Position numbers and translations under genes: made by a program. DNA of 64,000 nucleotides from a virus (Duplodnaviria > Caudoviricetes): the IMG/VR virus record IMGVR_UViG_3300010149_000008; one strand, 5' to 3'. The notes beneath the pieces are model-generated. The model had not been told where the DNA came from, ran no database searches, and saw nothing but the letters and a program-made list of their open reading frames with translations. Of this stretch, positions 3,444 through 55,936 are shown in pieces (the first letter of the stretch is position 1; every line of letters begins with the position of its first letter).

Positions 3444-6400
3444 ATGGCAGACGAAACAGAAAACAATCCTAATGATCCTAATTCAAGTAATACGTCAGCT
3501 ATAGATGCAAGTCAAACTGACTTGGCTAAAGAGCTAAATAGTGTTCTTGAACAAGTTGCAAACAGACTTGAAAAAATAAATGAAATTACAAAAAGTCAAG
3601 CAGACATGATGATTAACATGGCTCAGACATTCCAAGGTGTTCAAAGTAGTGTTTCAAATATGTCTCAAAGTGCTGAAATAATAACTGAAAGTATTGCACA
3701 AGCTGCTGAGACTGTTATAACTAATATTGATTCTCAATCAATGCAAAACGTTTCACAAAGTCTAGAGGAAGTAAGTGAAACTGCATCTAAAGGCTTGACT
3801 GCAAATTCAAAAAGCTTGACAGGCTTAAAAGAAAGTGTAACTAGCGCTGCAGCTAGCTGTCAAAGTGTGTCTGAAAGTTTATCTGGTGTTAGCGATGACA
3901 TAAGCGGTAACATGTCACAAATTAGTGATGACATACTGACTTTTAGAGAAAATACAAAAGGTTTAAAAGTAGAATCAAGAAGCTTTGTTGAAGCAATTAA
4001 AGAGTTAGATGAAAAAATATCCAATTTAGTAGGAGGTATTGCGTCTACATTTAAAAATATATTTATGGGTGCTTTTGGCATGATAAAAACTGTTGTAAGC
4101 TCTATAGGTTCTCTTGTAGGCGCTGCAACTCAATTTGTTAAATTTTCTTTAACAATACCTTTTACCATAGTGCAAGAAGCTGCAAAGCTAGGTAATCAAA
4201 TAAGGACAGATCTTGTAGAAGTCATTCAACAGTCTGCCGAAGATCTTAAAGAAAGCTTTGACTTTGAATCAAGCATAGGCCAAGGAATTCAAGAAATGAC
4301 TGCTAGAGGAAAAGGAATGCTATTAGAATTCCAAAACCCATCAAGCGAGTTAGTCAAGTTATTTGATATGGGTGCAAGTGGTATTGCTAATATGATCAAA
4401 GAAGTTGGGACAAATGTTGCTGCAATGGGACATTTTTCTGAAATATTTGGAAGAAGTATTATGGGCGACGAAAAAAGACTTAAAAATTTTACTAAAATGG
4501 TTAGAGGTTTTGGTTTTTCTTCAGAGGACATCCAGTATATGGCGTTAGATGCATCAGTCAACTTAGAGCATATTAATGTTAGAATGGCAAAGTTAGGTGT
4601 AACTTTAGAATCAACAGCTAAAGAGTTTGGTGTTGATAGAAAGAGGCTTTCAAAAAACTTTATGATCATGCGTAAAAACATTACGCAATTCGGTCACCTG
4701 TCAGATGAAGAAATTGCTTCAACAACAGCAAGATTAACGCAAATGAGAATTAAGCTAGAAGACGCTGTCGCTGTATTCGATAAGTTTAAAACTTTTGAAG
4801 ACGCTGCAAATTCTGTTGCAATATTATCACAAACTTTTGGTATGAATCTCGATGCGTTTGATATGATACAAGCTAAAAATCCAGAAGATATTATTAATAT
4901 GTTTAGAAATTCTATGCTTGAAACTGGCAGGGCTTTTGAAGATTTAAATAGGTTTGAGAAAGACTTGATGGCACAGCATACAGGAATGTCTGCAGAGTCT
5001 TTAGCAGCGCTTATGAATTATAGAGACTTAGGTTTAACACATCAAGAAGCAGTTGACAAAATGGCTTCTGAAAGACCTGAGGCTAAGCAAATGGCTTCAC
5101 TTAAAAAACTTAATAGCGCAATAAAAGAAGTTCAAAAAGTCATGACTTTCGATAGCCCTTTTAAAGCATTTGCATCAGGTGTCGCAGATAGCACAACTCT
5201 TACGGGAGAACTAAAAGATGTAATGGTTTCTCTAAGTCAAGGATACGAAGGAATATACAATTACGCTAAAAAACTAGATCCTAAAACATGGAGTGGACTA
5301 GTTAAACCTATAAACAGTATTATTAATATAATGTTAGGAATTTTTAAGAGTAAAGCATTTAAAGGAGGACTAACAAAAACTGTAGAAGTTATGTCTCATT
5401 TCATAGGTCAGCTTTTTAATTTTGATGAACCTACAAAAGCTTTACAAAATAGTGCAGTTGCAGCATCAAATGCAGGTAAAGAGCTAAGTGATGGAATGAA
5501 ATCAATTGGCGCAGCAAATGAAAAAAATGTAGGTGTCTTAGTCAATTTGAGTGGTAGAATAATGGGTGGTATTATTAAAGGAGCAGCAATTGGCTTTACA
5601 GCATTACTAATGACTGCAAATGATGGTATTGACACGCTTAAAACAAAGATGGATGCAAGAAACCCTTATAAGAACATAATTGAAACGTTTTTTGGATGGA
5701 ATCCGGGTGATGTTACAAAAATGGGCGACTCATTAAAGAATGCAGTTACTGACTTCTTTTCAAAGTCAGACGGTATGATTAGTTTAACCGGTTGGTTAAT
5801 GGAAGGCTTTGGTGATATTTTTGAAGTAGTTATTGGCATTTTTGGAGGTGCTCTAGCTGCTGGAATTGATAAGATTTTTGGTACACAATTTGGTGCAAAG
5901 CCAAGTGTTGCTTTAGCACAAACTTCTTTGAAAAGTCAAAGAAAACCAGCTAGTGAAACAATGCAAGAAATATCTGAAACTTTAGGTAAAGAAGGGACAG
6001 TTAATAGAAAAAATCTAGCTTCAATGATACACGACTTAAATGACAGAGCATCAACTGTAACTGACAAAGGACAAAAAGCACAGCTACAAACTGTAATAGA
6101 AAGTCTTAAGACAAGATTTACAGAAGAAGGTAATTCTGAGGATGATTTTAGAAATATTGCACTTCAAACAGCTGCAGTTATGCAAGGAATAAGTCAAGGT
6201 GCTTATAAAGGAAGAGATCTTTCTACTATACAGCAAATTAATGCACAAGACGATTTTGCAAACGCTGATGATCATGCTGTACATGGTAATATTGCAACTG
6301 CAGGTTTAGCAGGCGCTGGAGGAGTGCTTTTAGCTTCAAAAATGGCAGCAATGCTTCCGTTCCTTTCAGCAATACCTGGTGTTAATGTAGTTGCAGCAGG

Positions 6401-7304
6401 TGCACTCGGATTGGCTGGAGCAGGAATGATGGCTTACGGCTTGTATGATTGGTTTACAAGTAAAGAAACAAAATCAGTAACTACAGCCCGAGAATTTGAT
6501 AAGTACATGGAAAATAAAATAACTTCAAAGTTAATGGGTAGTCTTGTACAAGGCAGTGATTTTGCGCCTTATTTTAATAATATCTACTTTAAATCTTTCT
6601 GGGCAAATTATGGTGAAGAAATAACAGCTGCAGCTAAAAAATCTAAAGATTCAGGATATATGAACAGCATAAGCCCAGAATTTGAAGTAGGTAATTTTGC
6701 GGGTAGTCCTTATTACCAAAAAATATTTAAAAATACACTTAAAGGTGGACTTACGACTTACGAAGAACAATCAAATACTATTTTAGAACAAAAGCCAAGT
6801 GGTCCTAGTGAAGAGATGGTAAAAGATGGACAATCAGTTGGTGACTTAGAGTTTTTAAACAAGTATATAAATGTAAGTCAAAGCAAAAACATTTTAAACA
6901 ATTTACTAGCATCTGTATCTTTACCTAGTCTTTTTGAAGAAGAAACAAGCGCTACAACAATTGCTGCTTCAAATTATTCAGGTGCAAAAGAAATTAAAAT
7001 AAATAGAAGTAATCGATTGACTAAACAAAAAGTTGAAGATCAAAATCAAAAGCTAACTCAACTTAAAAAGAAGTTAGAAGAAGAAAATATTGAAGTTACA
7101 GCAGACTTTGTCTTTACAAACGAAATTATAGACAAGCTAATGAAGTCGATGGCAAAGAGTAATCTTGTTAGAATATTAGGCATGCCTGAGTATACAAATG
7201 GTGTCATGAGCTTAACAGAGAGTGCATTAGGGTCTAGATGCTTTAACATTGGCAGTGATGGTACTGCTGCGACAATAGAAACAGTCCAGCCTTCTGGAAG
7301 TTAA
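3444..7304 (+). CDS. Tape-measure-like tail protein, paralog 2
   Basis: 1286 aa, coiled-coil N-terminus, Gly/Ala-rich hydrophobic segment (GLAGAGGVLLASKMAAMLPFLSAIPGVNVVAAGALGLAGAGMMAYG), RBS AAGGA, tail-module context. Confidence 0.72.
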   Translation: MADETENNPNDPNSSNTSAIDASQTDLAKELNSVLEQVANRLEKINEITKSQADMMINMAQTFQGVQSSVSNMSQSAEIITESIAQAAETVITNIDSQSMQNVSQSLEEVSETASKGLTANSKSLTGLKESVTSAAASCQSVSESLSGVSDDISGNMSQISDDILTFRENTKGLKVESRSFVEAIKELDEKISNLVGGIASTFKNIFMGAFGMIKTVVSSIGSLVGAATQFVKFSLTIPFTIVQEAAKLGNQIRTDLVEVIQQSAEDLKESFDFESSIGQGIQEMTARGKGMLLEFQNPSSELVKLFDMGASGIANMIKEVGTNVAAMGHFSEIFGRSIMGDEKRLKNFTKMVRGFGFSSEDIQYMALDASVNLEHINVRMAKLGVTLESTAKEFGVDRKRLSKNFMIMRKNITQFGHLSDEEIASTTARLTQMRIKLEDAVAVFDKFKTFEDAANSVAILSQTFGMNLDAFDMIQAKNPEDIINMFRNSMLETGRAFEDLNRFEKDLMAQHTGMSAESLAALMNYRDLGLTHQEAVDKMASERPEAKQMASLKKLNSAIKEVQKVMTFDSPFKAFASGVADSTTLTGELKDVMVSLSQGYEGIYNYAKKLDPKTWSGLVKPINSIINIMLGIFKSKAFKGGLTKTVEVMSHFIGQLFNFDEPTKALQNSAVAASNAGKELSDGMKSIGAANEKNVGVLVNLSGRIMGGIIKGAAIGFTALLMTANDGIDTLKTKMDARNPYKNIIETFFGWNPGDVTKMGDSLKNAVTDFFSKSDGMISLTGWLMEGFGDIFEVVIGIFGGALAAGIDKIFGTQFGAKPSVALAQTSLKSQRKPASETMQEISETLGKEGTVNRKNLASMIHDLNDRASTVTDKGQKAQLQTVIESLKTRFTEEGNSEDDFRNIALQTAAVMQGISQGAYKGRDLSTIQQINAQDDFANADDHAVHGNIATAGLAGAGGVLLASKMAAMLPFLSAIPGVNVVAAGALGLAGAGMMAYGLYDWFTSKETKSVTTAREFDKYMENKITSKLMGSLVQGSDFAPYFNNIYFKSFWANYGEEITAAAKKSKDSGYMNSISPEFEVGNFAGSPYYQKIFKNTLKGGLTTYEEQSNTILEQKPSGPSEEMVKDGQSVGDLEFLNKYINVSQSKNILNNLLASVSLPSLFEEETSATTIAASNYSGAKEIKINRSNRLTKQKVEDQNQKLTQLKKKLEEENIEVTADFVFTNEIIDKLMKSMAKSNLVRILGMPEYTNGVMSLTESALGSRCFNIGSDGTAATIETVQPSGS

Positions 7305-7319
7305 AAGTGAGAATGTATT

Positions 7320-7577
7320 ATGAATAAATTAGATGTAAAAGAAGTGATTACAAAACTTGGACTTGACAAGGCACTATGCAAAGCATTTGCTAAAAAGACT
7401 GGAAAGACCGAGGAAGAATATTTAAAAATGTTTAACGAAATTGCAGAAAAAGAACTTAATGCTATTGGAAAATCACTAGTTGAAGGTCAAATAGATGAAA
7501 CTAAGTTCTCTCGATTACGAGGTTTGTCTCTGCAAGATTTTATGAAAGATAATGATAATATTATCAAGGACAAATAA
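7320..7577 (+). CDS. Hypothetical protein (tail module)
   Basis: 85-aa ORF tightly packed between tail genes. No recognisable motif. Confidence 0.6.
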   Translation: MNKLDVKEVITKLGLDKALCKAFAKKTGKTEEEYLKMFNEIAEKELNAIGKSLVEGQIDETKFSRLRGLSLQDFMKDNDNIIKDK

Positions 7578-7579
7578 AA

Positions 7580-10423
7580 ATGGCAAACAAGTATATTCTC
7601 AATCCTGATGGGTCGATACAAAAATATAAAGAAGATGCAAGCCAAGAGCTTGAAGGAAAAATATATCCAGACAAATTAACTGATGATGATGAGAGTTCTT
7701 ATTTAAGTGATTTACCTGCAGCAAAACAACTCAATAATACTATTTATGATGGTGTTCAAGCAGATATAGACTTTGGTTCGTTGTCAGATGATGCTGATTC
7801 AGGACATAAAAAAATAATATCTAATATCGAAAACGACAAGAGTTTTGGTTTTATTGACACAGATGGCAATGTAAAAGATACTCCTGGGAAAATATCTTCT
7901 TATACCCCCTTTAATTCTTATAGCGAAGTCAACGAAAAAGATGAAAAAATAAAAACAGTTGTCTTTGCAGATGAACTAGAAATGTTAGGAGGAATTAGAC
8001 TTGATGCGGATGCTCTAGACATTTCAGGGAAATTATTAGGTGCACTTTTTTCTTACTTTGCCGAGTCTATACTAAGAATAGTACTTGTTGAAGTAATTGT
8101 AATAGCAAATAAAGCTTTTGTTGCAGCAAATGGAAGTCAAACATCTACTTTTGAAAGATATAGCCTTAGAATAGGCAGATATGATTTTACAGAATTTGAT
8201 TTGTTTTCTAGATATGTCTTTAATGTTTTAAACTATCCACACGAAAGTTCAGGCACTGTTCAAAGAATTCTTGCTTATTTTGCAGGGTTTACGCAATGGC
8301 TAGCACCAGATATGTTAATAGACTTTGATGAAATTTTAAAAGAAACTAAAAAACAAAACAATAAGCTAGAGTTTGCTGTTAGCGCTTTTGATCCTAATTG
8401 GGCTAAGGCTTTAATGGTTATTGCAGAAAGTCTTGTAAGTATTGGGCTTGCTGCGTTATCAAATCAAACAGTCAATAATAGAGCAAACCTCCTATTTAGA
8501 AAATTTTATCAAGAAAGACACTGGAATCAAGAAATACTCTACAAAGCTAAAGAAAAAGAAGCTGCTGTTCCAGACTTATTTACAGACTTAAACTATTATT
8601 ACTTTAAGTTTTATATAGAAAGAATACAAATTGGCTTAAAATATATCAATAAGTACGTTTATAAATACACGTATCTTAGAGATAATGCAATAGATTCACC
8701 TTTCAATAGAGTTTCAGGAAACAAATCAAACAAAAATATTGATGCTGCTATTGAATTAATGACTTTTGATGGAAAAGCACTTACAGGTGACATCGCAGAA
8801 ATATTAACTCAAGGTGAATATAAACCAGAGAAAAGTACTGTGAAACCCACAGCTGTAGCTGCAGCAGCTGCAGCTGCAGCGGCTATAGGCTTAGATGCAC
8901 CTGCAGACGCAAGTTCACGTTCTCAGCAAGCAATAAAGTCTTATAGCTGGTTATATAAAGACTCTGATGGAGAGAAAACAGACGATGAAATATCTATAGC
9001 TAAAGGTAAAAAACCTGGCCAATCTACGAGAATAAGAGCTTTGCCGCAGATGTTTTCAATGCATCCGTCACTTTATAGAGCGTTAGCAGCAAATGGAAAG
9101 ACAGATATAAAATTAGGTAAAGATTTAATGCAAAATTTTTATACACTTTCTGATGATGAAAAAAGAATTCCTGATTATGCTGTGACTGAAATTGAAAATG
9201 CATTAGAGGCAGAGTATATGCCTTTTTACTTGCATGACATTAGAACGAACGAGATTTTGTCTTTTCATGCTTTTATAGAAAGTATAACTGACTCTTTTAA
9301 TCCAGAATACAACTCTAGCAGCGGTTTTGGTAGAATTGATGATGTTCGAACATATGTAAAAACAACAAGAAATATTAATGTATCTTTTACACTAGCATCA
9401 ACATCAGAGTCTGATCATGATTTAATGTGGTATCAAATAAATAAAATTGTTGCAATGGTATATCCACAATGGTCTGATGGCTTTAATGTCTTAGAGAGAA
9501 AAGAAGGTGAAGTTGTATTTGACAAAAGCGGCAATCCAAAAATAGATTTTAAATATCCTTTTACACAAGTACCAAATGCTTCACCTTTAGTAAGACTAAG
9601 AGTTGGTGACGTTATTAAAAGCAACTATAGTAGAACAAACCTTTCTAGACTTCACGGAGTAGGCGAAAGACAGGCAGACTTAGGTGCTGAAAAAGCATTA
9701 GATGCAAGCAATCGACATTATGAACTATTACCGGGAAATTACAAAGTAGATCAAGGAGGCTCAGATATTTTAGGCTTAACTCTTTCTTTTGGTAAAAGAC
9801 CAATGATGGTTACAATAGATTCTCCTGTTAAAATAGCAGAACTTATAGATAGTGCAGCTGATGAAGACAACTTTTATAAAGTTAAAATTGCTAATCCTTT
9901 TTATAGTGAAAACGAAGCAAAGTCAGTTGCAGATATTTTTAAACTACCTCCTGAGATACCAGCTGATGAAACAATCGAAGTTTATGCAGATGCATCAAAA
10001 ATAGTTGCAAGTCAAATTCACAAACTCAGTAAAGGAGGAGCTGCAGACGATCTTATGAAGCCTATGAAAGATGGAAAAGTTAATAATCCTATAACTAAGT
10101 CTTATGAAAGTGGAATGAGTAGAGGCTTGGCAGGATTTATAACGCAGTTAGATGTTAATTACAATGAAGTGCCTTGGGAGACTAGTAGAGTAGGTTCGAA
10201 AGCGCCAATGTTAGTAAAGTTAACCATAAACTTTGCACCAATTCATGATATACCTCCTGGGTTAGATCATAATGGAATGCTTAGAGCACCTGTTTATAAT
10301 GTAGGTAGAATAAACAACGAGTTTTTTGGAGACCCTAAGGATCACACGTATACAGGTTCTGGAAGAGACTTAGCAATGGCTAAATATAAATTTTTAAAAT
10401 ATAAAGAAGGATCAGGTAATTAA
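7580..10423 (+). CDS. Baseplate / tail-tube-initiator-like protein
   Basis: Segments PFYLHDIRTNEILSFHAFIESITDSFNPEY...GRIDDVRTYVKTTRNINVSFTL and GFITQLDVNYNEVPWET...APMLVKLTINFAPIHD resemble the tube-like baseplate proteins of contractile-tailed phages. Lies between the TMP and LysM/hub genes. Confidence 0.55.
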   Translation: MANKYILNPDGSIQKYKEDASQELEGKIYPDKLTDDDESSYLSDLPAAKQLNNTIYDGVQADIDFGSLSDDADSGHKKIISNIENDKSFGFIDTDGNVKDTPGKISSYTPFNSYSEVNEKDEKIKTVVFADELEMLGGIRLDADALDISGKLLGALFSYFAESILRIVLVEVIVIANKAFVAANGSQTSTFERYSLRIGRYDFTEFDLFSRYVFNVLNYPHESSGTVQRILAYFAGFTQWLAPDMLIDFDEILKETKKQNNKLEFAVSAFDPNWAKALMVIAESLVSIGLAALSNQTVNNRANLLFRKFYQERHWNQEILYKAKEKEAAVPDLFTDLNYYYFKFYIERIQIGLKYINKYVYKYTYLRDNAIDSPFNRVSGNKSNKNIDAAIELMTFDGKALTGDIAEILTQGEYKPEKSTVKPTAVAAAAAAAAAIGLDAPADASSRSQQAIKSYSWLYKDSDGEKTDDEISIAKGKKPGQSTRIRALPQMFSMHPSLYRALAANGKTDIKLGKDLMQNFYTLSDDEKRIPDYAVTEIENALEAEYMPFYLHDIRTNEILSFHAFIESITDSFNPEYNSSSGFGRIDDVRTYVKTTRNINVSFTLASTSESDHDLMWYQINKIVAMVYPQWSDGFNVLERKEGEVVFDKSGNPKIDFKYPFTQVPNASPLVRLRVGDVIKSNYSRTNLSRLHGVGERQADLGAEKALDASNRHYELLPGNYKVDQGGSDILGLTLSFGKRPMMVTIDSPVKIAELIDSAADEDNFYKVKIANPFYSENEAKSVADIFKLPPEIPADETIEVYADASKIVASQIHKLSKGGAADDLMKPMKDGKVNNPITKSYESGMSRGLAGFITQLDVNYNEVPWETSRVGSKAPMLVKLTINFAPIHDIPPGLDHNGMLRAPVYNVGRINNEFFGDPKDHTYTGSGRDLAMAKYKFLKYKEGSGN
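8852..8883 (+). repeat. GCN codon run encoding a poly-Ala linker (AVAAAAAAAA)
   Basis: gctgtagctgcagcagctgcagctgcagcggc read directly from the sequence. Confidence 0.8.
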
Positions 10424-20607: not shown

Positions 20608-21984
20608 ATGAGCTTAGAAAAAAACTTTTCAAAATTCGGCAAACCTTTTCAAGAAAAAGTATTTCAAGGAATGCTAACAGACCCCATGTGGTCAGGACAA
20701 ATGGTAGAAGTAGTCAGTCCAGACTATTTTGACTTGAAATATCTTAGCTTCTTATGCGACAAGTATTTTTCTTATTACAAGAAGTATAAAACTTTTCCAA
20801 CACTTACAATTTTAATTACAATTATTAAAGAAGATTTATCAAAATCTAAAGATTCAATACTAAGAGATCAAATAATAGAGTATCTTCATCGTATGAAAAC
20901 AAATCCTGACATTGGTGATCTACAATATGTAAAAGATAAGTCACTAGAGTTTTGCAAGAGACAGGCATTTAAAGAAGCGCTAGAACAAAGTGTTGATCTA
21001 ATTCAAACTGAAAAATATGAGTCTGTTATTAATATAATGAAAGAAGCAATTTCTGTTGGTATGCCTAATACCGCCGGGCACAATTTCTTTGACGATATTG
21101 AAGCACGTTTTGTCCAAATTAATAGGCAAGTTTGTCCAACAGGATTGACTAGAATTGATGCACAAGACATTTTAAGAGGTGGTTTAGGCAGAGGAGAGCT
21201 AGGAGTAATTGCAGCAAATACAGGAGTTGGTAAATCACACTTCTTAGTAGCAATGGGATGTGCTGCAATGTTAGCGGGTAAAAATGTAATCCATTATACA
21301 TTTGAGCTATCAGAGCATGAAACTGGAAAGAGATATGACTCAAATCTTTGTGACATACCTTCAAATGAAGTTATTGAAAGAAAGCGAGAAGTAGTTGGAA
21401 AATATGAAAAAATGGAACTAGGCAAATTAATAATTAAAGAGTATGCTACAGGCTCTGCTTCTGTCATGACTTTAAGAAATCATATAGAAAAATTAACGCT
21501 AAAAGGTTTTAAACCTAGCTTAGTAACAGTTGACTATGCTGATGTTATGAAAAGTTCTAGAGCTTATGACTCTTTAAGACATGAATTAAAACTTATATAT
21601 ACAGAATTAAGAAATCTTGCTGTAGAGCTTAACATACCGATATGGACAGCTTCACAAGCAAACAAAGATTCTTCAAAGTCTGATATTGTTGGTCTAGAAA
21701 ACTTAGGAGAGTCATATGGTAAGGCACAAGTAGCTGATGTTGTGTTGTCCATAAGCAGAAAGCCTATGGAAAAAAGCGAAGGTACTGGTAGAATATTTGT
21801 AGCAAAAAACAGAGCGGGAAGAGATGGTCTTCTATTCCCTATAAATATTGACACAGCAAAGTCTAAGTTTAAAATTTTGGATGAAAGTGAACTGACGCTT
21901 AATGAAGCTGTTACTCAAGACAATAGTGACATGAAAAACAAATTAAGAGAAAAGTGGAAAGAGGTAAACAAAAAAGATGATTAG
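20608..21984 (+). CDS. dnaB: DnaB-like replicative helicase (gp41-like)
   Basis: GGLGRGELGVIAANTGVGKS Walker A, VDYAD, IWTASQ, KNRAGRDG. Confidence 0.92.
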   Translation: MSLEKNFSKFGKPFQEKVFQGMLTDPMWSGQMVEVVSPDYFDLKYLSFLCDKYFSYYKKYKTFPTLTILITIIKEDLSKSKDSILRDQIIEYLHRMKTNPDIGDLQYVKDKSLEFCKRQAFKEALEQSVDLIQTEKYESVINIMKEAISVGMPNTAGHNFFDDIEARFVQINRQVCPTGLTRIDAQDILRGGLGRGELGVIAANTGVGKSHFLVAMGCAAMLAGKNVIHYTFELSEHETGKRYDSNLCDIPSNEVIERKREVVGKYEKMELGKLIIKEYATGSASVMTLRNHIEKLTLKGFKPSLVTVDYADVMKSSRAYDSLRHELKLIYTELRNLAVELNIPIWTASQANKDSSKSDIVGLENLGESYGKAQVADVVLSISRKPMEKSEGTGRIFVAKNRAGRDGLLFPINIDTAKSKFKILDESELTLNEAVTQDNSDMKNKLREKWKEVNKKDD

Positions 21985-22489
21985 TATTTTTCTTAGTGAC
22001 GAGTTAAAAGATGTTTTAAAAGAAAACAACATTAGTGTACATAATTATATTCCTGCATATAATGGTGAAAGTGCAGGTCTAGATTTGTTTAATTGTAATA
22101 AAGATATTTCGTTAATACCTACGCAGTATAAAAATGTTACAAATGAAAAACACTACACACAGCATAAATTTAAGACGTTAATATCAACAGGTTTAAGATT
22201 GATTGTTCCTAAGGGATATGTTGCACTAGTTCAAGAACGCGGTTCTATTACAAAAACTCCTCTTAAGGTTAGAGCAGGCGTTATAGATAGCGGTTATACA
22301 GGCGAAATATTTGTTAATTGTATTAACATTGGTTCGAAACCTTTTAACTTAAAAAAAGGGCAGAAGTTACCTTTTCAAATTGTAGTAGTTAAATGTGACA
22401 ACAATTTTAGAGTAATAGATGAAAAAGAATATTTAACATTATCATCAGCTTCTCAAAGAAAAGAAGGAATGGTGGGAAGTTCAGACTAA
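21977..22489 (+). CDS. dut: Trimeric dUTPase
   Basis: AGLDL, ERGS, GVIDSGYTGEI and the C-terminal R..G.vGSS motif. Confidence 0.88.
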   Translation: MISIFLSDELKDVLKENNISVHNYIPAYNGESAGLDLFNCNKDISLIPTQYKNVTNEKHYTQHKFKTLISTGLRLIVPKGYVALVQERGSITKTPLKVRAGVIDSGYTGEIFVNCINIGSKPFNLKKGQKLPFQIVVVKCDNNFRVIDEKEYLTLSSASQRKEGMVGSSD

Positions 22490-28261: not shown

Positions 28262-28483
28262 ATGGAAAATAAAGATTTTAAATTAGATGACAATGTTATT
28301 GCACACATTGCAAGAATTTTACAGGTTTCAATGCTTACTGGAACTGATATTATTGATCATATGAGAATGATTAGATTTACTTGTAAAGATGAAAAGTTAG
28401 TATTGCAAGATGAGTACGCAAAAATTTTTGATGGATCTTTAGACAACATGCTTAAAAATGCGCAAGAAAAGAAAGATGACTAA
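28262..28483 (+). CDS. Hypothetical protein
   Basis: 73-aa ORF with RBS AGGA, translationally coupled to the next gene. Confidence 0.65.
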   Translation: MENKDFKLDDNVIAHIARILQVSMLTGTDIIDHMRMIRFTCKDEKLVLQDEYAKIFDGSLDNMLKNAQEKKDD

Positions 28484-28860
28484 TGAACAAAGACAAATTG
28501 TTTGATATTTTTGAAAAGCGTGAAAGTTTTATGCATTTAATTAAGCAAAAATTTGAAGACTCTTACCCACAGTGGCCAGTTGATTTATCAACAAAAAAAG
28601 CACAGCATACATGTAGAGAGACAGCGCTTAAAGGTGTTGAAGAAATGTTTGAAGCACTTGGTCATCTAAAAAACTGGAAGCCTCATCGCGAAACAGAAAT
28701 GCCTGAAATTGATAGAGAAGAGTTCTTAGAAGAAATTGTAGACGCTTTTAATTATTTTTTCTCTCTAATGATTTTAATCGGAGTTGACGTTGAAGAATTC
28801 TATACAGCTTTTTTAAGCAAGGATGAGATCATAAGAAATAGAATTATTCAAGGATACTAG
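28483..28860 (+). CDS. All-alpha NTP pyrophosphatase (dimeric dUTPase / MazG / T4 gp56 dCTPase-like)
   Basis: EEMFEAL..LKNWKPHR....IDREEFLEEIVDAFNYF carries both acidic metal-binding helices of the superfamily. Confidence 0.8.
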   Translation: MNKDKLFDIFEKRESFMHLIKQKFEDSYPQWPVDLSTKKAQHTCRETALKGVEEMFEALGHLKNWKPHRETEMPEIDREEFLEEIVDAFNYFFSLMILIGVDVEEFYTAFLSKDEIIRNRIIQGY

Positions 28861-28862
28861 AT

Positions 28863-29534
28863 GTGATAAGTAAGCATGACACAATTAGTTTGTTTGGCAA
28901 CAAAAGCCTAAGAGCGTCATGCTTTGTATCATATGTGTGGAATATAATAGAAGACAAAATATTATATGTTCTAGGTATGACAAACAGTAATACAATTACT
29001 GTTTATATTGACAATGACAGCATAATATTTTCAGCTACTTCTAATCATAACATATTATGCGTTGAAAGATTTAACTTTTTTTACGATCATGTTTTAACAT
29101 CAATGACAGACTTATGCATAACTTTAACTGTAAACTTTATATCTTCTAAAATAAAAAAAATAAATTATGACATGTGCTCTTTTTACTATGACATAGAAAA
29201 CAAAGAAGATGATGGTATGATAGAAATATACTGTGACGCTTACTATGACATTGAAAGCTATAAAGATTTTAAGACAGAAATTACAATTCAACTAGCAAGA
29301 GAACTGCAGTATCTTATACATAGGAATATTATTGAAAGCAACATCGATACATGTGAAGTTGCAAAAATAGATTCAGTTTTTGAATGTGTTAATATTGTTA
29401 GAAAAGTAAAGAGTATAAGTTTTAAATCAGCAGCTGATTATTTACTTAATATAGATAAAGTGTCTATAGAAGAATATCAAGAAGTGTGTAATATAAACAA
29501 AGAGGTTGAACATGAAATCAGAAAACAACAATAA
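28863..29534 (+). CDS. Hypothetical protein
   Basis: 223-aa ORF with a GTG start, packed inside the operon. Confidence 0.5.
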   Translation: MISKHDTISLFGNKSLRASCFVSYVWNIIEDKILYVLGMTNSNTITVYIDNDSIIFSATSNHNILCVERFNFFYDHVLTSMTDLCITLTVNFISSKIKKINYDMCSFYYDIENKEDDGMIEIYCDAYYDIESYKDFKTEITIQLARELQYLIHRNIIESNIDTCEVAKIDSVFECVNIVRKVKSISFKSAADYLLNIDKVSIEEYQEVCNINKEVEHEIRKQQ

Positions 29535-29880
29535 AACTAGGCGAAGCGATTTAGCTTATGAGGCAAAAGATCTTTTACAAAAAGCTTCACGTGTTCCTAC
29601 AAAATGGTTAGATATTTTTAATGCTATAGAAATGTTTAGAAAAAAAGTACAAGCAGGAAGAGATTCATACGACTCTACAGCTAACGATTCGCAAGTAGGT
29701 CTAATGTCACCAATGCTTGTCATGTTTGCTTTAATGCTTGAGACTAACATGTTAATGGAACCATTAGACACAAACATAATAATAAACATACTTTCAGATA
29801 ATTTCCGTGAAGAAAGGCACATTGAAACGCTTAAAGAGCTACTGCGTACACTTCACCCAGAAAAAAAAGAGTTTAAATGA
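29506..29880 (+). CDS. Hypothetical protein
   Basis: 124-aa ORF with RBS GAGG, overlapping its neighbours. Confidence 0.55.
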   Translation: MNMKSENNNKTRRSDLAYEAKDLLQKASRVPTKWLDIFNAIEMFRKKVQAGRDSYDSTANDSQVGLMSPMLVMFALMLETNMLMEPLDTNIIINILSDNFREERHIETLKELLRTLHPEKKEFK

Positions 29881-30803
29881 AAAATAATTTAACTATTAAA
29901 AGCTTACTAAAGCTTCAAGACAATTTTTCTTCTACATTTTATGATAAAAAAACAATGTCAGCAAAACAAAAAGAAGAAATGTTAAAAACAATTACATTAG
30001 CAATGCATCATGAAGTATCAGAAATTGTTTCTTCTTCTAACTTTAAAGTTTTTGATAAAACTGACTATGAAGTAGATAAAGATAAGATTTTATATAATTC
30101 TATAGATGTGTTTAGATATCTAATGGCAATAATGAATCTTTATGAAATATCTAGCGAAGAATTTATTTCTTCATTTGACGAGAGAGATATTCATTTAAAA
30201 GTAAGCAAGAACATTAAAAGCCCAGAAACATCTCAAAAGGTTATTGTTGTTGACATAGATGACGTTGTTTGTGACTTTCGTAACTATTTTAATAATTGGT
30301 TGTATAAGACTTACGGTGTTTACGTAGATCAAAATAATACTTCTTACTATTCTTCAAAAGAAGTAAAAAATAAAGGTTTGAGTCCTGAAGGTGTTTTTGA
30401 AAATTTCATTTCATGTAATGAATTTCTTAACATTCCACCAATAGATAGCATGGTAAAATTTCTAAGGTTGGCAAAAGAAGAAAATATATACATTCAGCTC
30501 CTTACTTCTAGACCAAGCAGCAATTTAAAATGTAAATATCAAACTTATGCTTGGCTAGAAAATAACAATATACCTTTTGACAATTTAGACTTTGCGGCAG
30601 AAAAATATATTTGGGTTGCAAAACGTGACTTTTATTTAAACGGGAATTTAATGTGTGCTATAGATGACAGTCCTAAACATGCAATGGAGTACGCAACTCA
30701 CGACATTAAAGTCTTTGTACCAAAAATGCCATACAATGATCAAATAAGTCATGAAAACATACATCACTACGTTCTTGAAGACTTAGAAAAATTTAAATTT
30801 TAA
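29877..30803 (+). CDS. Fusion of an all-alpha NTP-PPase-like domain and a HAD 5'(3')-deoxyribonucleotidase
   Basis: The N-terminus aligns by eye to 28483..28860. The C-terminus has HAD motifs VDIDDV, LLTSRP, K and IDDSP. Confidence 0.75.
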   Translation: MKNNLTIKSLLKLQDNFSSTFYDKKTMSAKQKEEMLKTITLAMHHEVSEIVSSSNFKVFDKTDYEVDKDKILYNSIDVFRYLMAIMNLYEISSEEFISSFDERDIHLKVSKNIKSPETSQKVIVVDIDDVVCDFRNYFNNWLYKTYGVYVDQNNTSYYSSKEVKNKGLSPEGVFENFISCNEFLNIPPIDSMVKFLRLAKEENIYIQLLTSRPSSNLKCKYQTYAWLENNNIPFDNLDFAAEKYIWVAKRDFYLNGNLMCAIDDSPKHAMEYATHDIKVFVPKMPYNDQISHENIHHYVLEDLEKFKF

Positions 30804-30895: not shown

Positions 30896-31882
30896 ATGCC
30901 TGTTAACAACAATCTTGAACCAGTAGCACTTCCTATGCAGCTTAAGTTTGGACAAGATCCAGTTACAAATTACATTAACAATCTAGAATCACTAAAAGTA
31001 GAAGTAATTGATGCGCCTACAAGAGAACAAGCACAAAATATTGCTTGGCACATGACAAAAGCAACATGGGCAGATTCACCTTCTGAAACTGATTTTAAGA
31101 ACTCAACACCCGAAGAGGCTTCTACAAATCTTCAAGATGTACTTAATTTTCGTGCACTTCCTACTCCAATGGAGTGTTTAGGATTTACATTTAAGATTAG
31201 TGGTATTGATGTACAAACTGTTACACATCTTATTCGTCATAGAGCAGGATCTTTTGCAGCACAATGTACAGGTGACAGAGACTTGAGACACGATAATGCA
31301 CTAGTTCCTGAGTCAATTGAAAACTGCAGAAAAGATGATGATGACTTTTATTTTAGGTATTTAGATATTGTCAAGGAAGCAAAACTACTATACTCTGAAA
31401 TGGTTGATAGCAAAAAAGTTTCAATGATGGACGCAAGAGTAATACTTCCTAAGTGCATGGAGACTTTTTATATTGCAAGATTTAATCTTAAAGACTTGAT
31501 CGGTTTTATTAAACAACGTCAAGACGTTCAAATCCAACCTGAGGTTGATAATATTTTAGCAACGCGCATCGCACGTGCTGTTTGTGAAGCAATTCCAGAA
31601 GTATCAACTTGTCTAGACTTTAACAAGCCTGATATGCACTACGTAAGAACTTTTAGAGTTAAATTGCCAGATGGAACTTACACTTCTCGTGGAACAAATC
31701 TATATCAGCCAGAACCTAAAAATGATTTATTTGATTATAATGAAAATGATTCAATATACCAGTGCAAAAGAGAAGACTTAAATGGTAATAAGTCAGGTGA
31801 AGAAAAAGTATTTACACGAATGTGGAATGACGATGTAAAAGCTGTAAGTTTAATTAAACAAAAACTTAATAGCGAATTTTAG
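30896..31882 (+). CDS. Divergent ThyX-like flavoprotein
   Basis: FTFKISGID...HLIRHRAGSFAAQCTGDR, DARVILP and FIKQR..Q.Q.E retain the ThyX scaffold, but the signature is altered. C-terminal extension of about 90 aa. Confidence 0.8.
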   Translation: MPVNNNLEPVALPMQLKFGQDPVTNYINNLESLKVEVIDAPTREQAQNIAWHMTKATWADSPSETDFKNSTPEEASTNLQDVLNFRALPTPMECLGFTFKISGIDVQTVTHLIRHRAGSFAAQCTGDRDLRHDNALVPESIENCRKDDDDFYFRYLDIVKEAKLLYSEMVDSKKVSMMDARVILPKCMETFYIARFNLKDLIGFIKQRQDVQIQPEVDNILATRIARAVCEAIPEVSTCLDFNKPDMHYVRTFRVKLPDGTYTSRGTNLYQPEPKNDLFDYNENDSIYQCKREDLNGNKSGEEKVFTRMWNDDVKAVSLIKQKLNSEF

Positions 31883-31961: not shown

Positions 31962-32411
31962 ATGAAAAAGATTTATCTTGCTAGCGGTTGGTTTAATACT
32001 AAACAAGCTGATGAGCTTACTGAGCTCGAGCGTATTTTTGATGAAAGAAAAGAACATTTTAATCTAGCATCGCCTAGAAGGATCTTTGTTTGTCCACCAG
32101 ACGCGCCAAAAGAAGTTCAAAACGAAACTTTTGAAGGTAATTTACATCACATAAAAACAGCAGACTTTTTGCTTGTTAACACAAGAGACAAAGACATTGG
32201 AACAATTTGGGAAGCTGGATATGCATATGCATATGACAAGCCAATTATTTATTTTTGCGCAGGATTACCAGAAGGAGCAAAATTTAATTTAATGCTAGCT
32301 AGAAGTGGTATTAAAGTTTGCACGTCTTTTGATGAATTAGAAGACTATCTGGATAGAACAATTAAAATACGTTCATTTATAAATGAGCCATACTCAGCTT
32401 CAATCGAGTAA
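31962..32411 (+). CDS. Nucleoside 2-deoxyribosyltransferase-family nucleotide N-glycosidase (DNPH1/MilB-like)
   Basis: IYLASGWF, SP, ADFLL, DIGTIWEAGYAYAYDKPII (catalytic Glu). Confidence 0.85.
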   Translation: MKKIYLASGWFNTKQADELTELERIFDERKEHFNLASPRRIFVCPPDAPKEVQNETFEGNLHHIKTADFLLVNTRDKDIGTIWEAGYAYAYDKPIIYFCAGLPEGAKFNLMLARSGIKVCTSFDELEDYLDRTIKIRSFINEPYSASIE

Positions 32412-43161: not shown

Positions 43162-44055
43162 ATGAGATTTTTAAATATTAATATAGAAGGTCCTGATTGT
43201 AGTGGTAAGACTACACTTTTTAATAGAATTCATAAAGAAACAAGCTTTAAGTACAACATACAAGACAGAAGCTGTATGTCAATGTATGTTTATGCAAAAT
43301 TGTATGAAAGAGATAACGCTTCTTTTTGGTTTGATAAAGTTCTTGAAGACATTAAACGATTAGATACATTATATATTGTTCTTTTACCTTCAAACCATAC
43401 TGTGTTAGAAAGACTAAGAAAAAGAGGTGATGAGTTTCAAGATGAAGAAAGCATTATGGATGTCAAACGTTTATTTTACAACTTAGTTAAATGCGGATTT
43501 GGTAACTTTCCAAATGTTTTAGTGCTAGAAGACATTGAAGATTTAACGCAGAAAGTTGATATGTGTTTAAGCTTTATTGAAAGTTTAAATGAATTTCCTA
43601 GTGGCGACTTAATAAAGTCTATTGTTATTAATAGCGGCAGAAACGAATTAGTTGACGTACAATGCAAGGAAGTAGTTGACATTAGCTCTTTAGACTACAC
43701 AGCATTAAATTTTCCTGAAGAAAAATCGTATTATGAAAAAATTACTACAGATATTGAAAATAAGATCTTTAAAGAATTTGCAGGTTTAAATTCACATAAT
43801 ACACCACAAAAACATGACAGTAGAAGATTTGTTTATACTGATGCAAGTTGTATATCGCTTATTCATGCTTTGTTTCGAAAGAACAGACTAAACGTTTCAG
43901 TGACACTTAGATCTTCAAATGTAATTAAAACACTCTGGGCAGATTATGAATTTTTAAAGATAATTAGTGTAAAATTAGCAGAACTTATGCAACTTGACGA
44001 AAGCATACCAGTCGATTTGACTATTAATATAAGGTCTGCACATATTGTACCTTAA
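43162..44055 (+). CDS. dNMP kinase fused to a minimal thymidylate-synthase-fold domain
   Basis: N-terminus IEGPDCSGKTT and QDRS (TMPK family). C-terminus SRR, C230-X19-R250-S, D261 and SAH294, with spacing that matches TS catalytic residues. Confidence 0.78.
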   Translation: MRFLNINIEGPDCSGKTTLFNRIHKETSFKYNIQDRSCMSMYVYAKLYERDNASFWFDKVLEDIKRLDTLYIVLLPSNHTVLERLRKRGDEFQDEESIMDVKRLFYNLVKCGFGNFPNVLVLEDIEDLTQKVDMCLSFIESLNEFPSGDLIKSIVINSGRNELVDVQCKEVVDISSLDYTALNFPEEKSYYEKITTDIENKIFKEFAGLNSHNTPQKHDSRRFVYTDASCISLIHALFRKNRLNVSVTLRSSNVIKTLWADYEFLKIISVKLAELMQLDESIPVDLTINIRSAHIVP

Positions 44056-45985: not shown

Positions 45986-46411
45986 ATGGAAAATATAGCT
46001 CGTCCCTCTTGGGACAAAATATGGATGACAATGGCAGAAACTATTGCACAAAGAAGTCATCATTCTACTTTCAAGGTAGGCGCTATTATAGTAACGTCAG
46101 ATAATACACAAGTGCTTTCTTTGGGGTATAATGGTAATGCTGCAGGATTATCAAACGTACCTCAATCTGAAGAACCTGGCTGTAGTGGTTTATTACATGC
46201 TGAAATTAATGCTTTACTTAAGCTGGATTATAATAACCCAAAAGATAAAGTTATGTATTTGACGTTAAGCCCTTGCACAAACTGCGCGATCGCTGTTATT
46301 AATAGTGGAATAAAAAAAGTAGTCTATAAAACAAAGTATAGAGACGATACAGGCATTAACATGTTAACATCTGCAGGTGTGTTAGTAGAGCAATTTAATT
46401 TAAACAAATAA
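45986..46411 (+). CDS. dCMP deaminase
   Basis: RPSWD..WM..A..IA.RS, VGA.IV, GYNG, HAEINA, SPCTNC. Confidence 0.9.
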   Translation: MENIARPSWDKIWMTMAETIAQRSHHSTFKVGAIIVTSDNTQVLSLGYNGNAAGLSNVPQSEEPGCSGLLHAEINALLKLDYNNPKDKVMYLTLSPCTNCAIAVINSGIKKVVYKTKYRDDTGINMLTSAGVLVEQFNLNK

Positions 46412-55198: not shown

Positions 55199-55936
55199 AT
55201 GCATATAAATAATTTAATTAAAAAAGCGATCGCTGAAACATTAGAAGAAAAAGGATTATCAACCAATGCTAGTCAAGAAAGATTAACAGAGAACAATCTT
55301 GTTTCATCTGGAGTTATGTCTGAGGCTTATGTCGCTGAAGCTGGAAAGTTTAATTTAAAAACAGAACTTTTATCAGATAAAACTAAGAAAGCACATCAAG
55401 AACTTTTAGAAGGATACGTTGAAAATCTTAACAAAGTTTCTGCAAAGTTAGACGGAGTAGACAAATCTTCAGCTAATTTAAACCACTCTGACTTTCGAAA
55501 CTTAAAGGTAGACGAAACTTACAATCATAATGCTGCATTTTTACATGGCATGTATTTTGAAAACATAAGTGACTTAAATAGTCAGATTACAGTTGATTCA
55601 TTGACTTATATGAAGTTAGCAAGAGACTTTGGCACGTTTGATAAGTGGCAAGAAGATTTTGTTGCTTGTTGTCTTTCAGCAAGAAATGGTTGGGCTGTTA
55701 CTTTTTATAATCCAAATCTTAAAAGATATATGAATACTGTTATTGACTTACATAGCCAAAACGTAATGATTAGCATGCTTCCAGTTGTTGTAATGGATTG
55801 TTGGGAACATAGTTATTATAGAGATTATCTTAAAGACAGAAAAACATATGTCTATGGAATGATGAAAGAGATAGATTGGTCTATTGTTGAGAATAGAGTT
55901 AAATTATCTGAAAAAATTGCGAAAGTGTTAGGTTAA
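55199..55936 (+). CDS. sod: Fe/Mn superoxide dismutase with an N-terminal extension
   Basis: H in KAHQELLEGYVENLN, H in AAFLHGMYF, signature DCWEHSYYRDY, FGTFDKWQEDF...GWA. Confidence 0.85.
   Translation: MHINNLIKKAIAETLEEKGLSTNASQERLTENNLVSSGVMSEAYVAEAGKFNLKTELLSDKTKKAHQELLEGYVENLNKVSAKLDGVDKSSANLNHSDFRNLKVDETYNHNAAFLHGMYFENISDLNSQITVDSLTYMKLARDFGTFDKWQEDFVACCLSARNGWAVTFYNPNLKRYMNTVIDLHSQNVMISMLPVVVMDCWEHSYYRDYLKDRKTYVYGMMKEIDWSIVENRVKLSEKIAKVLG

Follow-up and report, generated by a model that had tools for sequence, protein, structure and literature searches.

This report concerns two neighbouring genes within a 64,000-nucleotide stretch of viral DNA, hereafter the window, taken from the IMG/VR record IMGVR_UViG_3300010149_000008. 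The first encodes a small protein, MazGs, that carries the motifs of the all-alpha nucleoside triphosphate pyrophosphatases (NTP-PPases). The second encodes a two-domain protein, FUS, in which a degraded relative of the same domain is joined to a predicted nucleotidase of the haloacid dehalogenase (HAD) superfamily. Both open reading frames (ORFs) lie at the coordinates given in an earlier sequence-only reading of this DNA and contain the peptides quoted there. FUS is a 308-residue ORF spanning 29877-30803 on the plus strand, and the three domains of the pair are located as follows.

28483..28860, plus strand: MazGs, predicted to be a stand-alone all-alpha NTP pyrophosphatase of 125 residues that belongs to the dimeric-dUTPase/dCTPase type and has all of the catalytic motifs.

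29877..30221, plus strand: the FUS N-domain (residues 1-115), a degraded all-alpha NTP-PPase and likely pseudo-enzyme, as judged by homology, AlphaFold2 (AF2) modelling and motifs.

30237..30803, plus strand: the FUS C-domain (residues 121-308), a predicted NT5C-type HAD 5'(3')-deoxyribonucleotidase with a helical C1 cap, as judged by Pfam, motifs and structure.

We place MazGs among the all-alpha NTP-PPases because of its match to phrog_12184 'nucleotide pyrophosphohydrolase' (4.6e-16), a profile-profile link to the FUS N-domain and its motifs; against Pfam dUTPase_2 (PF08761) it scores 17.4 bits, under the gathering cut-off of 22.9. Ten residues (E54, E57, E83, E84, D87, K66, H68, K113, R120 and Y125) are invariant among 38 orthologs. 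The magnesium ligands of the superfamily form an ExxE...ExxD tetrad, which in the dUTPase of C. jejuni comprises E46, E49, E74 and D77, and the basic residues K175, R182 and K194 of that enzyme act on the phosphates (PMC10014863). MazGs residues E54, E57, E84 and D87 align to this tetrad, and K113 and R120 to K175 and R182. The AF2 model is a four-helix bundle (pLDDT 93.2) whose Foldseek neighbours include YpjD, DCTPP1, a staphylococcal phage dimeric Dut, DR2231 and the S-2L MazG (TM 0.55-0.68, with weak E-values), and all of the matches inspected were all-alpha NTP-PPases.

That the locus holds two homologous all-alpha domains, as the sequence-only reading proposed, is well supported. BLASTP aligns MazGs 35-114 with FUS 27-104 at 26% identity over 80 residues (E 2e-6), and an hhalign comparison of 38 MazGs orthologs with 45 FUS N-domains returns a probability of 98.2% (E 3.5e-14, 110 columns). 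FUS residues 7-141 match dUTPase_2 with 29.3 bits, above the same cut-off. In the AF2 model of FUS (pLDDT 92.8 for the whole protein, pTM 0.87), helices 7-18, 29-51, 68-88 and 93-111 form a four-helix bundle; fold searches with the whole model were filled by HAD-domain matches.

The catalytic residues have fared unevenly in the fused copy. The first ExxE is retained, with E54 and E57 of MazGs corresponding to E46 and E49 of FUS, and D87 is retained as D77. E83 and E84 have become Y73 and N74, the KxHR motif (K66-x-H68-R69) reads K57-V-F59-D60, and the motif-V residues K113 and R120 correspond to R103 and S110. The earlier statement that the paired glutamate ligands are lost is consequently correct for the second motif, where EExxD has become YNxxD, but not for the first. 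Its broader description of one copy as degraded and fused to a DxDxV nucleotidase agrees with the retention of only four of 11 catalytic-motif positions (E46, E49, K57 and D77) and with the NT5C match in FUS. The N-domain thus has the homology and fold of the all-alpha family and lacks a complete magnesium tetrad and the phosphate-binding basic residues. We would class it as a homolog of the all-alpha NTP-PPases and not as one of their active members. Comparison of FUS family members shows E46 and D77 to be almost invariant and position 49 to be free to vary; at position 74, distant members have Glu and those of the window's clade Asn, Lys, His or Gly. The N-domain also has a conserved signature of its own (Q14, F17, H44, R80, Y81 and N87), which indicates that it is under selection and has undergone more than simple decay.

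FUS residues 121-277 match Pfam NT5C (PF06941) with 28.3 bits, above the cut-off of 24.8, and the HAD motifs D126-x-D128, T210, K243 and D263-D264 are invariant among 32 homologs. The AF2 model has a HAD core with cap helices (134-201) between motifs I and II, which make up a four-helix C1 cap like that of mdN and cdN. The top structural matches of the C-domain are 3bwv (Z 16.9) and human cdN 6g2n (Z 16.3), with other HADs at 13.9 or below, and the top Foldseek match of FUS is mdN 4mum (TMt 0.74). Identity to the deoxyribonucleotidase structures is 15-19%, such that specificity residues are not reliably transferable.

FUS belongs to a much larger group of proteins. An exhaustive profile search with its N-domain recovered 840 proteins at E <= 1e-3, and many relatives of 300-325 residues hold complete motifs (ExxE, NWKxHR, EExxD-xx-K and a motif-V-like RKSxVVxQRY). 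Five of these intact proteins (P0153, P0161, P0173, P0176 and P0182) were scanned against Pfam; NT5C was found in all five and dUTPase_2 in four. The fusion of an NTP-PPase with an NT5C domain is a broad family in uncultured phages. We found no description of it in the literature searched, an absence that holds for that literature only, and among cultured phages a tblastn search with the intact fusion P0176 returned only stand-alone actinophage HAD nucleotidases or phosphatases (two inspected, 207-236 residues). Loci of intact fusions were gathered by an IMG/VR scan with a narrow multi-sequence alignment; scans with P0176 or P0153 as single proteins gave no matches. In none of the 55 IMG/VR loci is there another all-alpha ORF within 6 kb of the intact fusion. 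Its neighbours are instead ThyX-like genes (19 of the 55), trimeric dUTPase-like genes, kinase-like ORFs of about 140 residues and short-chain dehydrogenases/reductases (SDRs).

Degeneracy of the N-domain tracks pairing with a free MazGs. Among non-redundant sequences, the EEED tetrad is intact in 43 of 46 unpaired fusions versus seven of 62 paired ones, and the mean score on the 11 motif positions falls from 9.5 in unpaired fusions to 6.6 in distant paired copies and 4.1 in the window's clade. The change of E73 to Tyr or Phe is common to all paired copies listed. All trees in this study are quick trees built on about 120 columns. In the domain tree, which has modest support, the degraded N-domains form one clade nested among those of intact fusions, and MazGs groups with stand-alone proteins and is not sister to the FUS N-domain. 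The two domains are paralogs, and a recent tandem duplication is unlikely because the two copies are not sisters. No tandem 'Rosetta-stone' fusion of two all-alpha domains was present among the long top matches examined, whose extra regions look like other domains. Short matches with the degraded signature (90-205 residues) are probably contig-end fragments.

Two further arrangements of the intact domain were encountered. In seven proteins of 418-432 residues (P0171, P0212, P0237, P0241, P0259, P0262 and P0267) and in the 649-residue P0177, an intact all-alpha NTP-PPase is preceded by a fused N-terminal region, and in P0177 an NT5C domain comes after the all-alpha domain. The three that were read (P0171, P0259 and P0177) have a glycine-rich Rossmann-like motif in this region, which on sequence grounds may bind a dinucleotide such as FAD. 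These proteins may represent another uncharacterised nucleotide-modifying architecture. Separately, in loci L184, L185, L187, L189, L193-L201, L203, L216 and L219 the intact fusion occurs in a fixed array (at about 6000-9200 in most), ahead of a gene of the trimeric dUTPase/dCTP-deaminase-like kind, a kinase-like ORF of about 140 residues and an SDR of about 350 residues. This array is a conserved module in uncultured phages.

The MazGs and FUS genes are embedded in a gene cluster, all members of which are read from the plus strand.

28262..28483, plus strand: o73, a 73-residue ORF without a known family, the constant upstream companion of MazGs.

28863..29534, plus strand: o223, an inserted 223-residue ORF without a family match, clade-specific and lying between MazGs and FUS.

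29506..29880, plus strand: o124b, an inserted 124-residue ORF with function not assigned, clade-specific and also between MazGs and FUS.

30896..31882, plus strand: ThyX2, a divergent ThyX-like flavoenzyme (PF02511 1.9e-20; TIGR02170 below cut-off).

31962..32411, plus strand: a nucleoside 2-deoxyribosyltransferase (NDT)-like gene (PF05014 8e-13).

The stop codon of o73 overlaps the MazGs start (TAATG), and that of o124b overlaps the FUS start (ATGA). Searches of Pfam, PHROG, PADLOC and the atlas assigned no family to o73, and o223 had no family match in Pfam, PHROG or PADLOC/atlas searches. The sole match of o124b is a weak one to phrog_25095 (0.0076). A scan of the locus for promoters and terminators found no enrichment.

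Conservation of this cluster was examined in two sets of IMG/VR loci, one seeded with FUS (80 loci) and one with MazGs (76 loci). In the FUS-seeded set, the order o73, MazGs, FUS, ThyX-like gene and NDT-like gene holds at identities as low as 35%. All 75 loci with upstream DNA contain MazGs, and FUS never occurs without it; in distant lineages MazGs adjoins or overlaps the FUS start. Of the other members, o73 lies upstream of MazGs in 73 of the 80 loci, ThyX2 adjoins FUS in 76 and the NDT-like gene is found in 71. The inserted genes have a narrower distribution. The o124b gene occurs in six of the 80 loci, and o223 is restricted to the window's clade, including its FUS-less relatives, and is missing from distant loci where MazGs adjoins FUS.

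The dependence does not run in the other direction. FUS is missing from 42 of the 76 MazGs-seeded loci through clean deletion: most of these loci have 3-6 kb of downstream DNA, the flanking genes are only about 70 nucleotides apart, and o73, MazGs, the ThyX-like gene (in most) and the NDT-like gene are retained. Neither FUS nor any NT5C gene is encoded in a complete 239.5-kb relative, whose genome has terminal repeats, and the same is true of two large partial genomes (84% and 61% complete). Every deep branch of the MazGs tree bears FUS, whose distribution calls for about nine gain or loss changes, at least two of which are forced by well-supported branches. The losses are concentrated in the window's clade, where 22 members are without FUS and 19 have it, and this is also the clade with the most decayed N-domain. 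Where FUS persists, both of its domains have diverged more quickly than the core genes. Over the same genome pairs, the mean identity to the window is 0.41 for the FUS N-domain and 0.455 for the HAD domain, compared with 0.575 for MazGs, 0.58 for ThyX2 and 0.61 for the NDT-like protein. Relative identities were used as the guide to evolutionary rate; at such distances, synonymous sites are saturated.

MazGs has its most constant partner in o73, also in loci without FUS. It is present in all but one of the 42 FUS-less loci listed, and the exception, L122, is cut at its 5' end. The o73 product might regulate the pyrophosphatase or form one of its subunits. An apparent o73-MazGs fusion in locus L068 was dismissed as an ORF-calling artefact.

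We believe, with a confidence only a little better than even, that FUS is an NT5C-type deoxynucleotidase derived from a bifunctional ancestor, that MazGs performs the conversion of deoxynucleoside triphosphate (dNTP) to monophosphate (dNMP), and that the fused N-domain has decayed to a pseudo-enzyme. The enzyme activities, and the loss of catalysis by the N-domain, are inferred here from sequence. The ancestor would have been an active all-alpha NTP pyrophosphatase fused to a nucleotidase, able to take a dNTP through its dNMP to the nucleoside. The functions could have been partitioned once this bifunctional fusion came to share an operon with a free pyrophosphatase. MazGs would act as the core enzyme that converts dNTP to dNMP and pyrophosphate, and because this step would be covered by MazGs, the fused copy would have lost catalytic residues, with partial decay in every paired lineage and heavy decay in the clade of the window. 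Later, many close relatives would have deleted the FUS gene outright. In those that keep it, the N-domain would persist as a folded pseudo-enzyme, presumably for dimerisation and/or nucleotide binding, and the HAD domain would dephosphorylate a dNMP and so make that nucleotide's removal from the pool irreversible. The nucleoside product might feed the neighbouring NDT-like and kinase genes and could be recycled. FUS would then be an optional accessory sink on a pool-editing module of o73, MazGs, ThyX-like and NDT-like genes, rather than a part of its core.

The underlying route from dNTP through dNMP to nucleoside, which the sequence-only reading had proposed, is plausible, and a wider family of the same fusion with a fully intact N-domain reinforces it. 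Our guess is that the substrate is a canonical pyrimidine, either dCTP/dCMP or derived from dUTP/dTTP. There is precedent for such clearance in phage PBS1, whose Dtm is an NT5C-family (PF06941) dTMP phosphatase that clears one dNMP (PMC12697855). By analogy with Dtm and with the dCTPase logic of phages with modified cytosine (PMC13326640), such a drain would irreversibly exclude one canonical nucleotide.

Several observations weigh against this explanation. The N-domain in the window retains E46, E49 and D77, and distant paired copies retain E46, E74 and D77, the equivalents of which are the three residues that coordinate magnesium in E. coli MazG (PMC10014863). Some catalysis, residual or altered, may therefore persist. 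The PHROG matches of FUS to phrog_415 'polynucleotide kinase' (2.2e-14) and to the unknown-family phrog_420 beat its match to the deoxyribonucleotidase PHROG. If the substrate is dTMP, a nucleotidase beside a thymidine kinase and a canonical ThyX risks futile cycling. Finally, the link between degeneracy and pairing derives largely from one clade and may reflect a single evolutionary event.

We think it unlikely, though worth stating, that the decayed N-domain is instead an adaptor kept for a purpose, which either docks the nucleotidase onto a MazGs dimer or senses a (possibly modified) nucleotide and gates the nucleotidase. If this is true, docking by protomer exchange would channel dNMP straight to dephosphorylation, and with either mechanism a phage base-replacement pathway centred on the ThyX-like enzyme would have a 'drain' that can be switched.

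A related proposal, that of the sequence-only reading, to which we likewise give little credence, is that MazGs and the FUS N-domain form a heterodimer with one active and one dead protomer that passes dNMP to the tethered nucleotidase. The four-helix core of dimeric dUTPases both forms the active site and mediates dimerisation, and simplified phage dimeric Duts take some catalytic residues from the neighbouring protomer (PMC5608427). The proposal would also fit the absence of any FUS without MazGs (75 of 75 loci), the abutting or overlapping genes of distant lineages, and the predicted fold, conservation and invariant residues of the N-domain. However, MazGs persists unchanged without FUS in many relatives, a complete genome included, and must therefore act as a homodimer or by itself. 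No free partner accompanies the intact fusions, whose fused domain can thus presumably self-associate. Furthermore, no two-domain tandem fusion appeared among the long top matches examined, and the copies are only 26% identical and not sisters in the domain tree.

Still less probable, in our estimation, is a truly bifunctional FUS whose N-domain uses a reduced metal site to hydrolyse a (d)NTP other than that of MazGs, which would give the phage two pyrophosphatases of distinct specificity. The acidic residues kept in the window (E46, E49 and D77) and in distant paired copies (E46, E74 and D77) might suffice, given that only three acidic residues coordinate magnesium in E. coli MazG (PMC10014863). 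The N-domain is also under purifying selection across 27-62% identity, and the conserved substitutions H44, R80 and N87 could mean a new specificity. Set against this, the window's clade has been hit in three motifs (E74 to Asn, Lys or His; KxHR to KxFD; and the motif-V Lys/Arg to Arg/Ser), position 49 varies freely family-wide, and all paired copies listed share the E73 change to Tyr or Phe.

It is very doubtful that the HAD domain, in the service of hypermodification or repair, has as its substrate a sugar phosphate or the 3'-phosphorylated end of a nucleic acid. The phrog_415 match (2.2e-14) and the T4 Pnkp phosphatase domain (Z 13.9) point in this direction, as do a 5'(3')-deoxyribonucleotidase-fold protein of RB69 proposed to dephosphorylate arabinose-5-phosphate (PMC13326640) and an SDR epimerase gene nearby, a type of gene that is a frequent neighbour of intact fusions. 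Nevertheless, the NT5C score exceeds the gathering cut-off, and deoxynucleotidases head the structural matches by a margin of about 2.5 Z units, with 161-176 residues aligned, compared with 128 for Pnkp. The Pnkp type is cap-less and usually joined to a kinase, whereas FUS has no kinase domain and has a four-helix C1 cap that resembles those of mdN and cdN. Fusion to an NTP-PPase likewise points to a nucleotide substrate.

An obligate form of the heterodimeric machine envisaged in the sequence-only reading is not supported, given that MazGs persists in the absence of FUS in roughly half of the MazGs-seeded loci (42 of 76) and in the complete 239.5-kb relative, that intact fusions are without a free all-alpha partner in 55 of 55 loci, and that no tandem fusion is found among the long top matches examined.

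If FUS is indeed a nucleotidase with a decayed pyrophosphatase domain, it holds interest beyond this one phage. A phage that alters the chemistry of its DNA needs enzymes to clear away the canonical nucleotide, and single-chain enzymes that convert dNTP to dNMP and then to nucleoside, when encoded beside ThyX-like genes, could help to flag candidate DNA-modification pathways. In addition, the intact fusion, the paired and partly decayed copy, the heavily decayed copy and the deleted gene form a natural series. This series offers a testable case of redundancy turning an enzyme domain into a pseudo-enzyme.

The source of the window is an uncultured marine jumbo phage. Its record is a 115.5-kb IMG/VR virus estimated to be about 46% complete, and the window has a GC content of about 30% with nearly all genes on the plus strand. 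Close homologs originate from marine metagenomes, Tara samples included, on contigs that reach 256 kb. Searches of cultured phages with the DNA of the region (megablast) and with FUS (tblastn) gave no match. Replication and recombination genes around the locus encode DnaB, RecA, a gp32-like protein and DNA polymerase III alpha. Nucleotide metabolism is represented by the large and small subunits of ribonucleotide reductase, a canonical ThyX, a thymidine kinase and a dCMP deaminase, and further genes encode ClpP, an amidase, the SDR epimerase and a P-loop protein resembling deoxynucleoside kinase (dNK) or dTMP kinase. One more gene bears on the choice of substrate.

21977..22489, plus strand: a trimeric dUTPase-like gene (PF00692 1e-12; TIGR00576 1.9e-18, below the equivalog cut-off).

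With this gene, the earlier remark that the phage already has a trimeric dUTPase is upheld to the level of these matches. The P-loop protein (43162-44055, plus strand) has 297 residues, of which only a dNK/dTMP-kinase-like N-terminus is recognised, and short relatives of about 140 residues recur next to intact fusions. The dCMP deaminase (45986-46411, plus strand) lies 2 kb beyond it, and the two proteins are likely parts of the same pyrimidine pathway. Elsewhere, at 55199-55936 on the plus strand, the phage encodes a Fe/Mn superoxide-dismutase-like protein (PF02777 5.4e-20) whose N-terminal domain is weak.

Among known systems, the closest to the two all-alpha domains is the dimeric dUTPase/dCTPase branch (dUTPase_2; the C. 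jejuni dUTPase 1w2y, the staphylococcal phage dimeric Dut 5mil/5myf and DCTPP1), although sequence matches to the solved dimeric dUTPase-type structures are weak (E 0.3-0.7). Like this branch, MazGs has the four-helix core, the ExxE...ExxD tetrad and the motif-V Lys/Arg, but it is a minimal version of 125 residues that lacks the mobile domain. The FUS N-domain resembles the branch in its fold and in some of its motifs; it differs in the absence of E74, the KxHR motif and motif V and in its fusion to a HAD domain. For the C-domain, the corresponding group is the NT5C family (human mdN and cdN, S. epidermidis 3bwv and PBS1 Dtm), with which it has in common the HAD core, the DxDxV, T, K and DD motifs and the helical cap, and to which FUS adds an N-terminal all-alpha domain. 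The intact fusions, represented by P0153, P0161, P0173, P0176 and P0182, have the same two-domain architecture as FUS and often lie near ThyX-like, dUTPase-like, SDR and kinase-like genes. Unlike FUS, they keep the full N-domain motifs (EEED in 43 of 46) and have no free all-alpha paralog nearby.

A possible counterpart in a cultured virus is the 304-residue protein A0A2I6UG56 of Salinibacter phage M8CC-19, a BFVD match named 'dATP/dGTP diphosphohydrolase N-terminal domain-containing'. Foldseek aligns it to the FUS model over its full length (329 columns, TM 0.41), with a root-mean-square deviation of 20 A that reflects a different domain orientation, and there is no sequence-level match. The model comparison suggests that it is also an NTP-PPase plus HAD two-domain protein. 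As such, it may be a pyrophosphatase-HAD fusion that is available for experiments.

The nearest parallel to the pairing of two all-alpha domains is tandem-domain MazG, in which one of the two domains is less active than the other. In E. coli MazG (3cra) and M. tuberculosis MazG, the two all-alpha domains belong to one chain and work together (PMC10014863). In the system described here, by contrast, the two domains lie on separate polypeptides with at most a putative association, and the degraded one is tethered to a nucleotidase.

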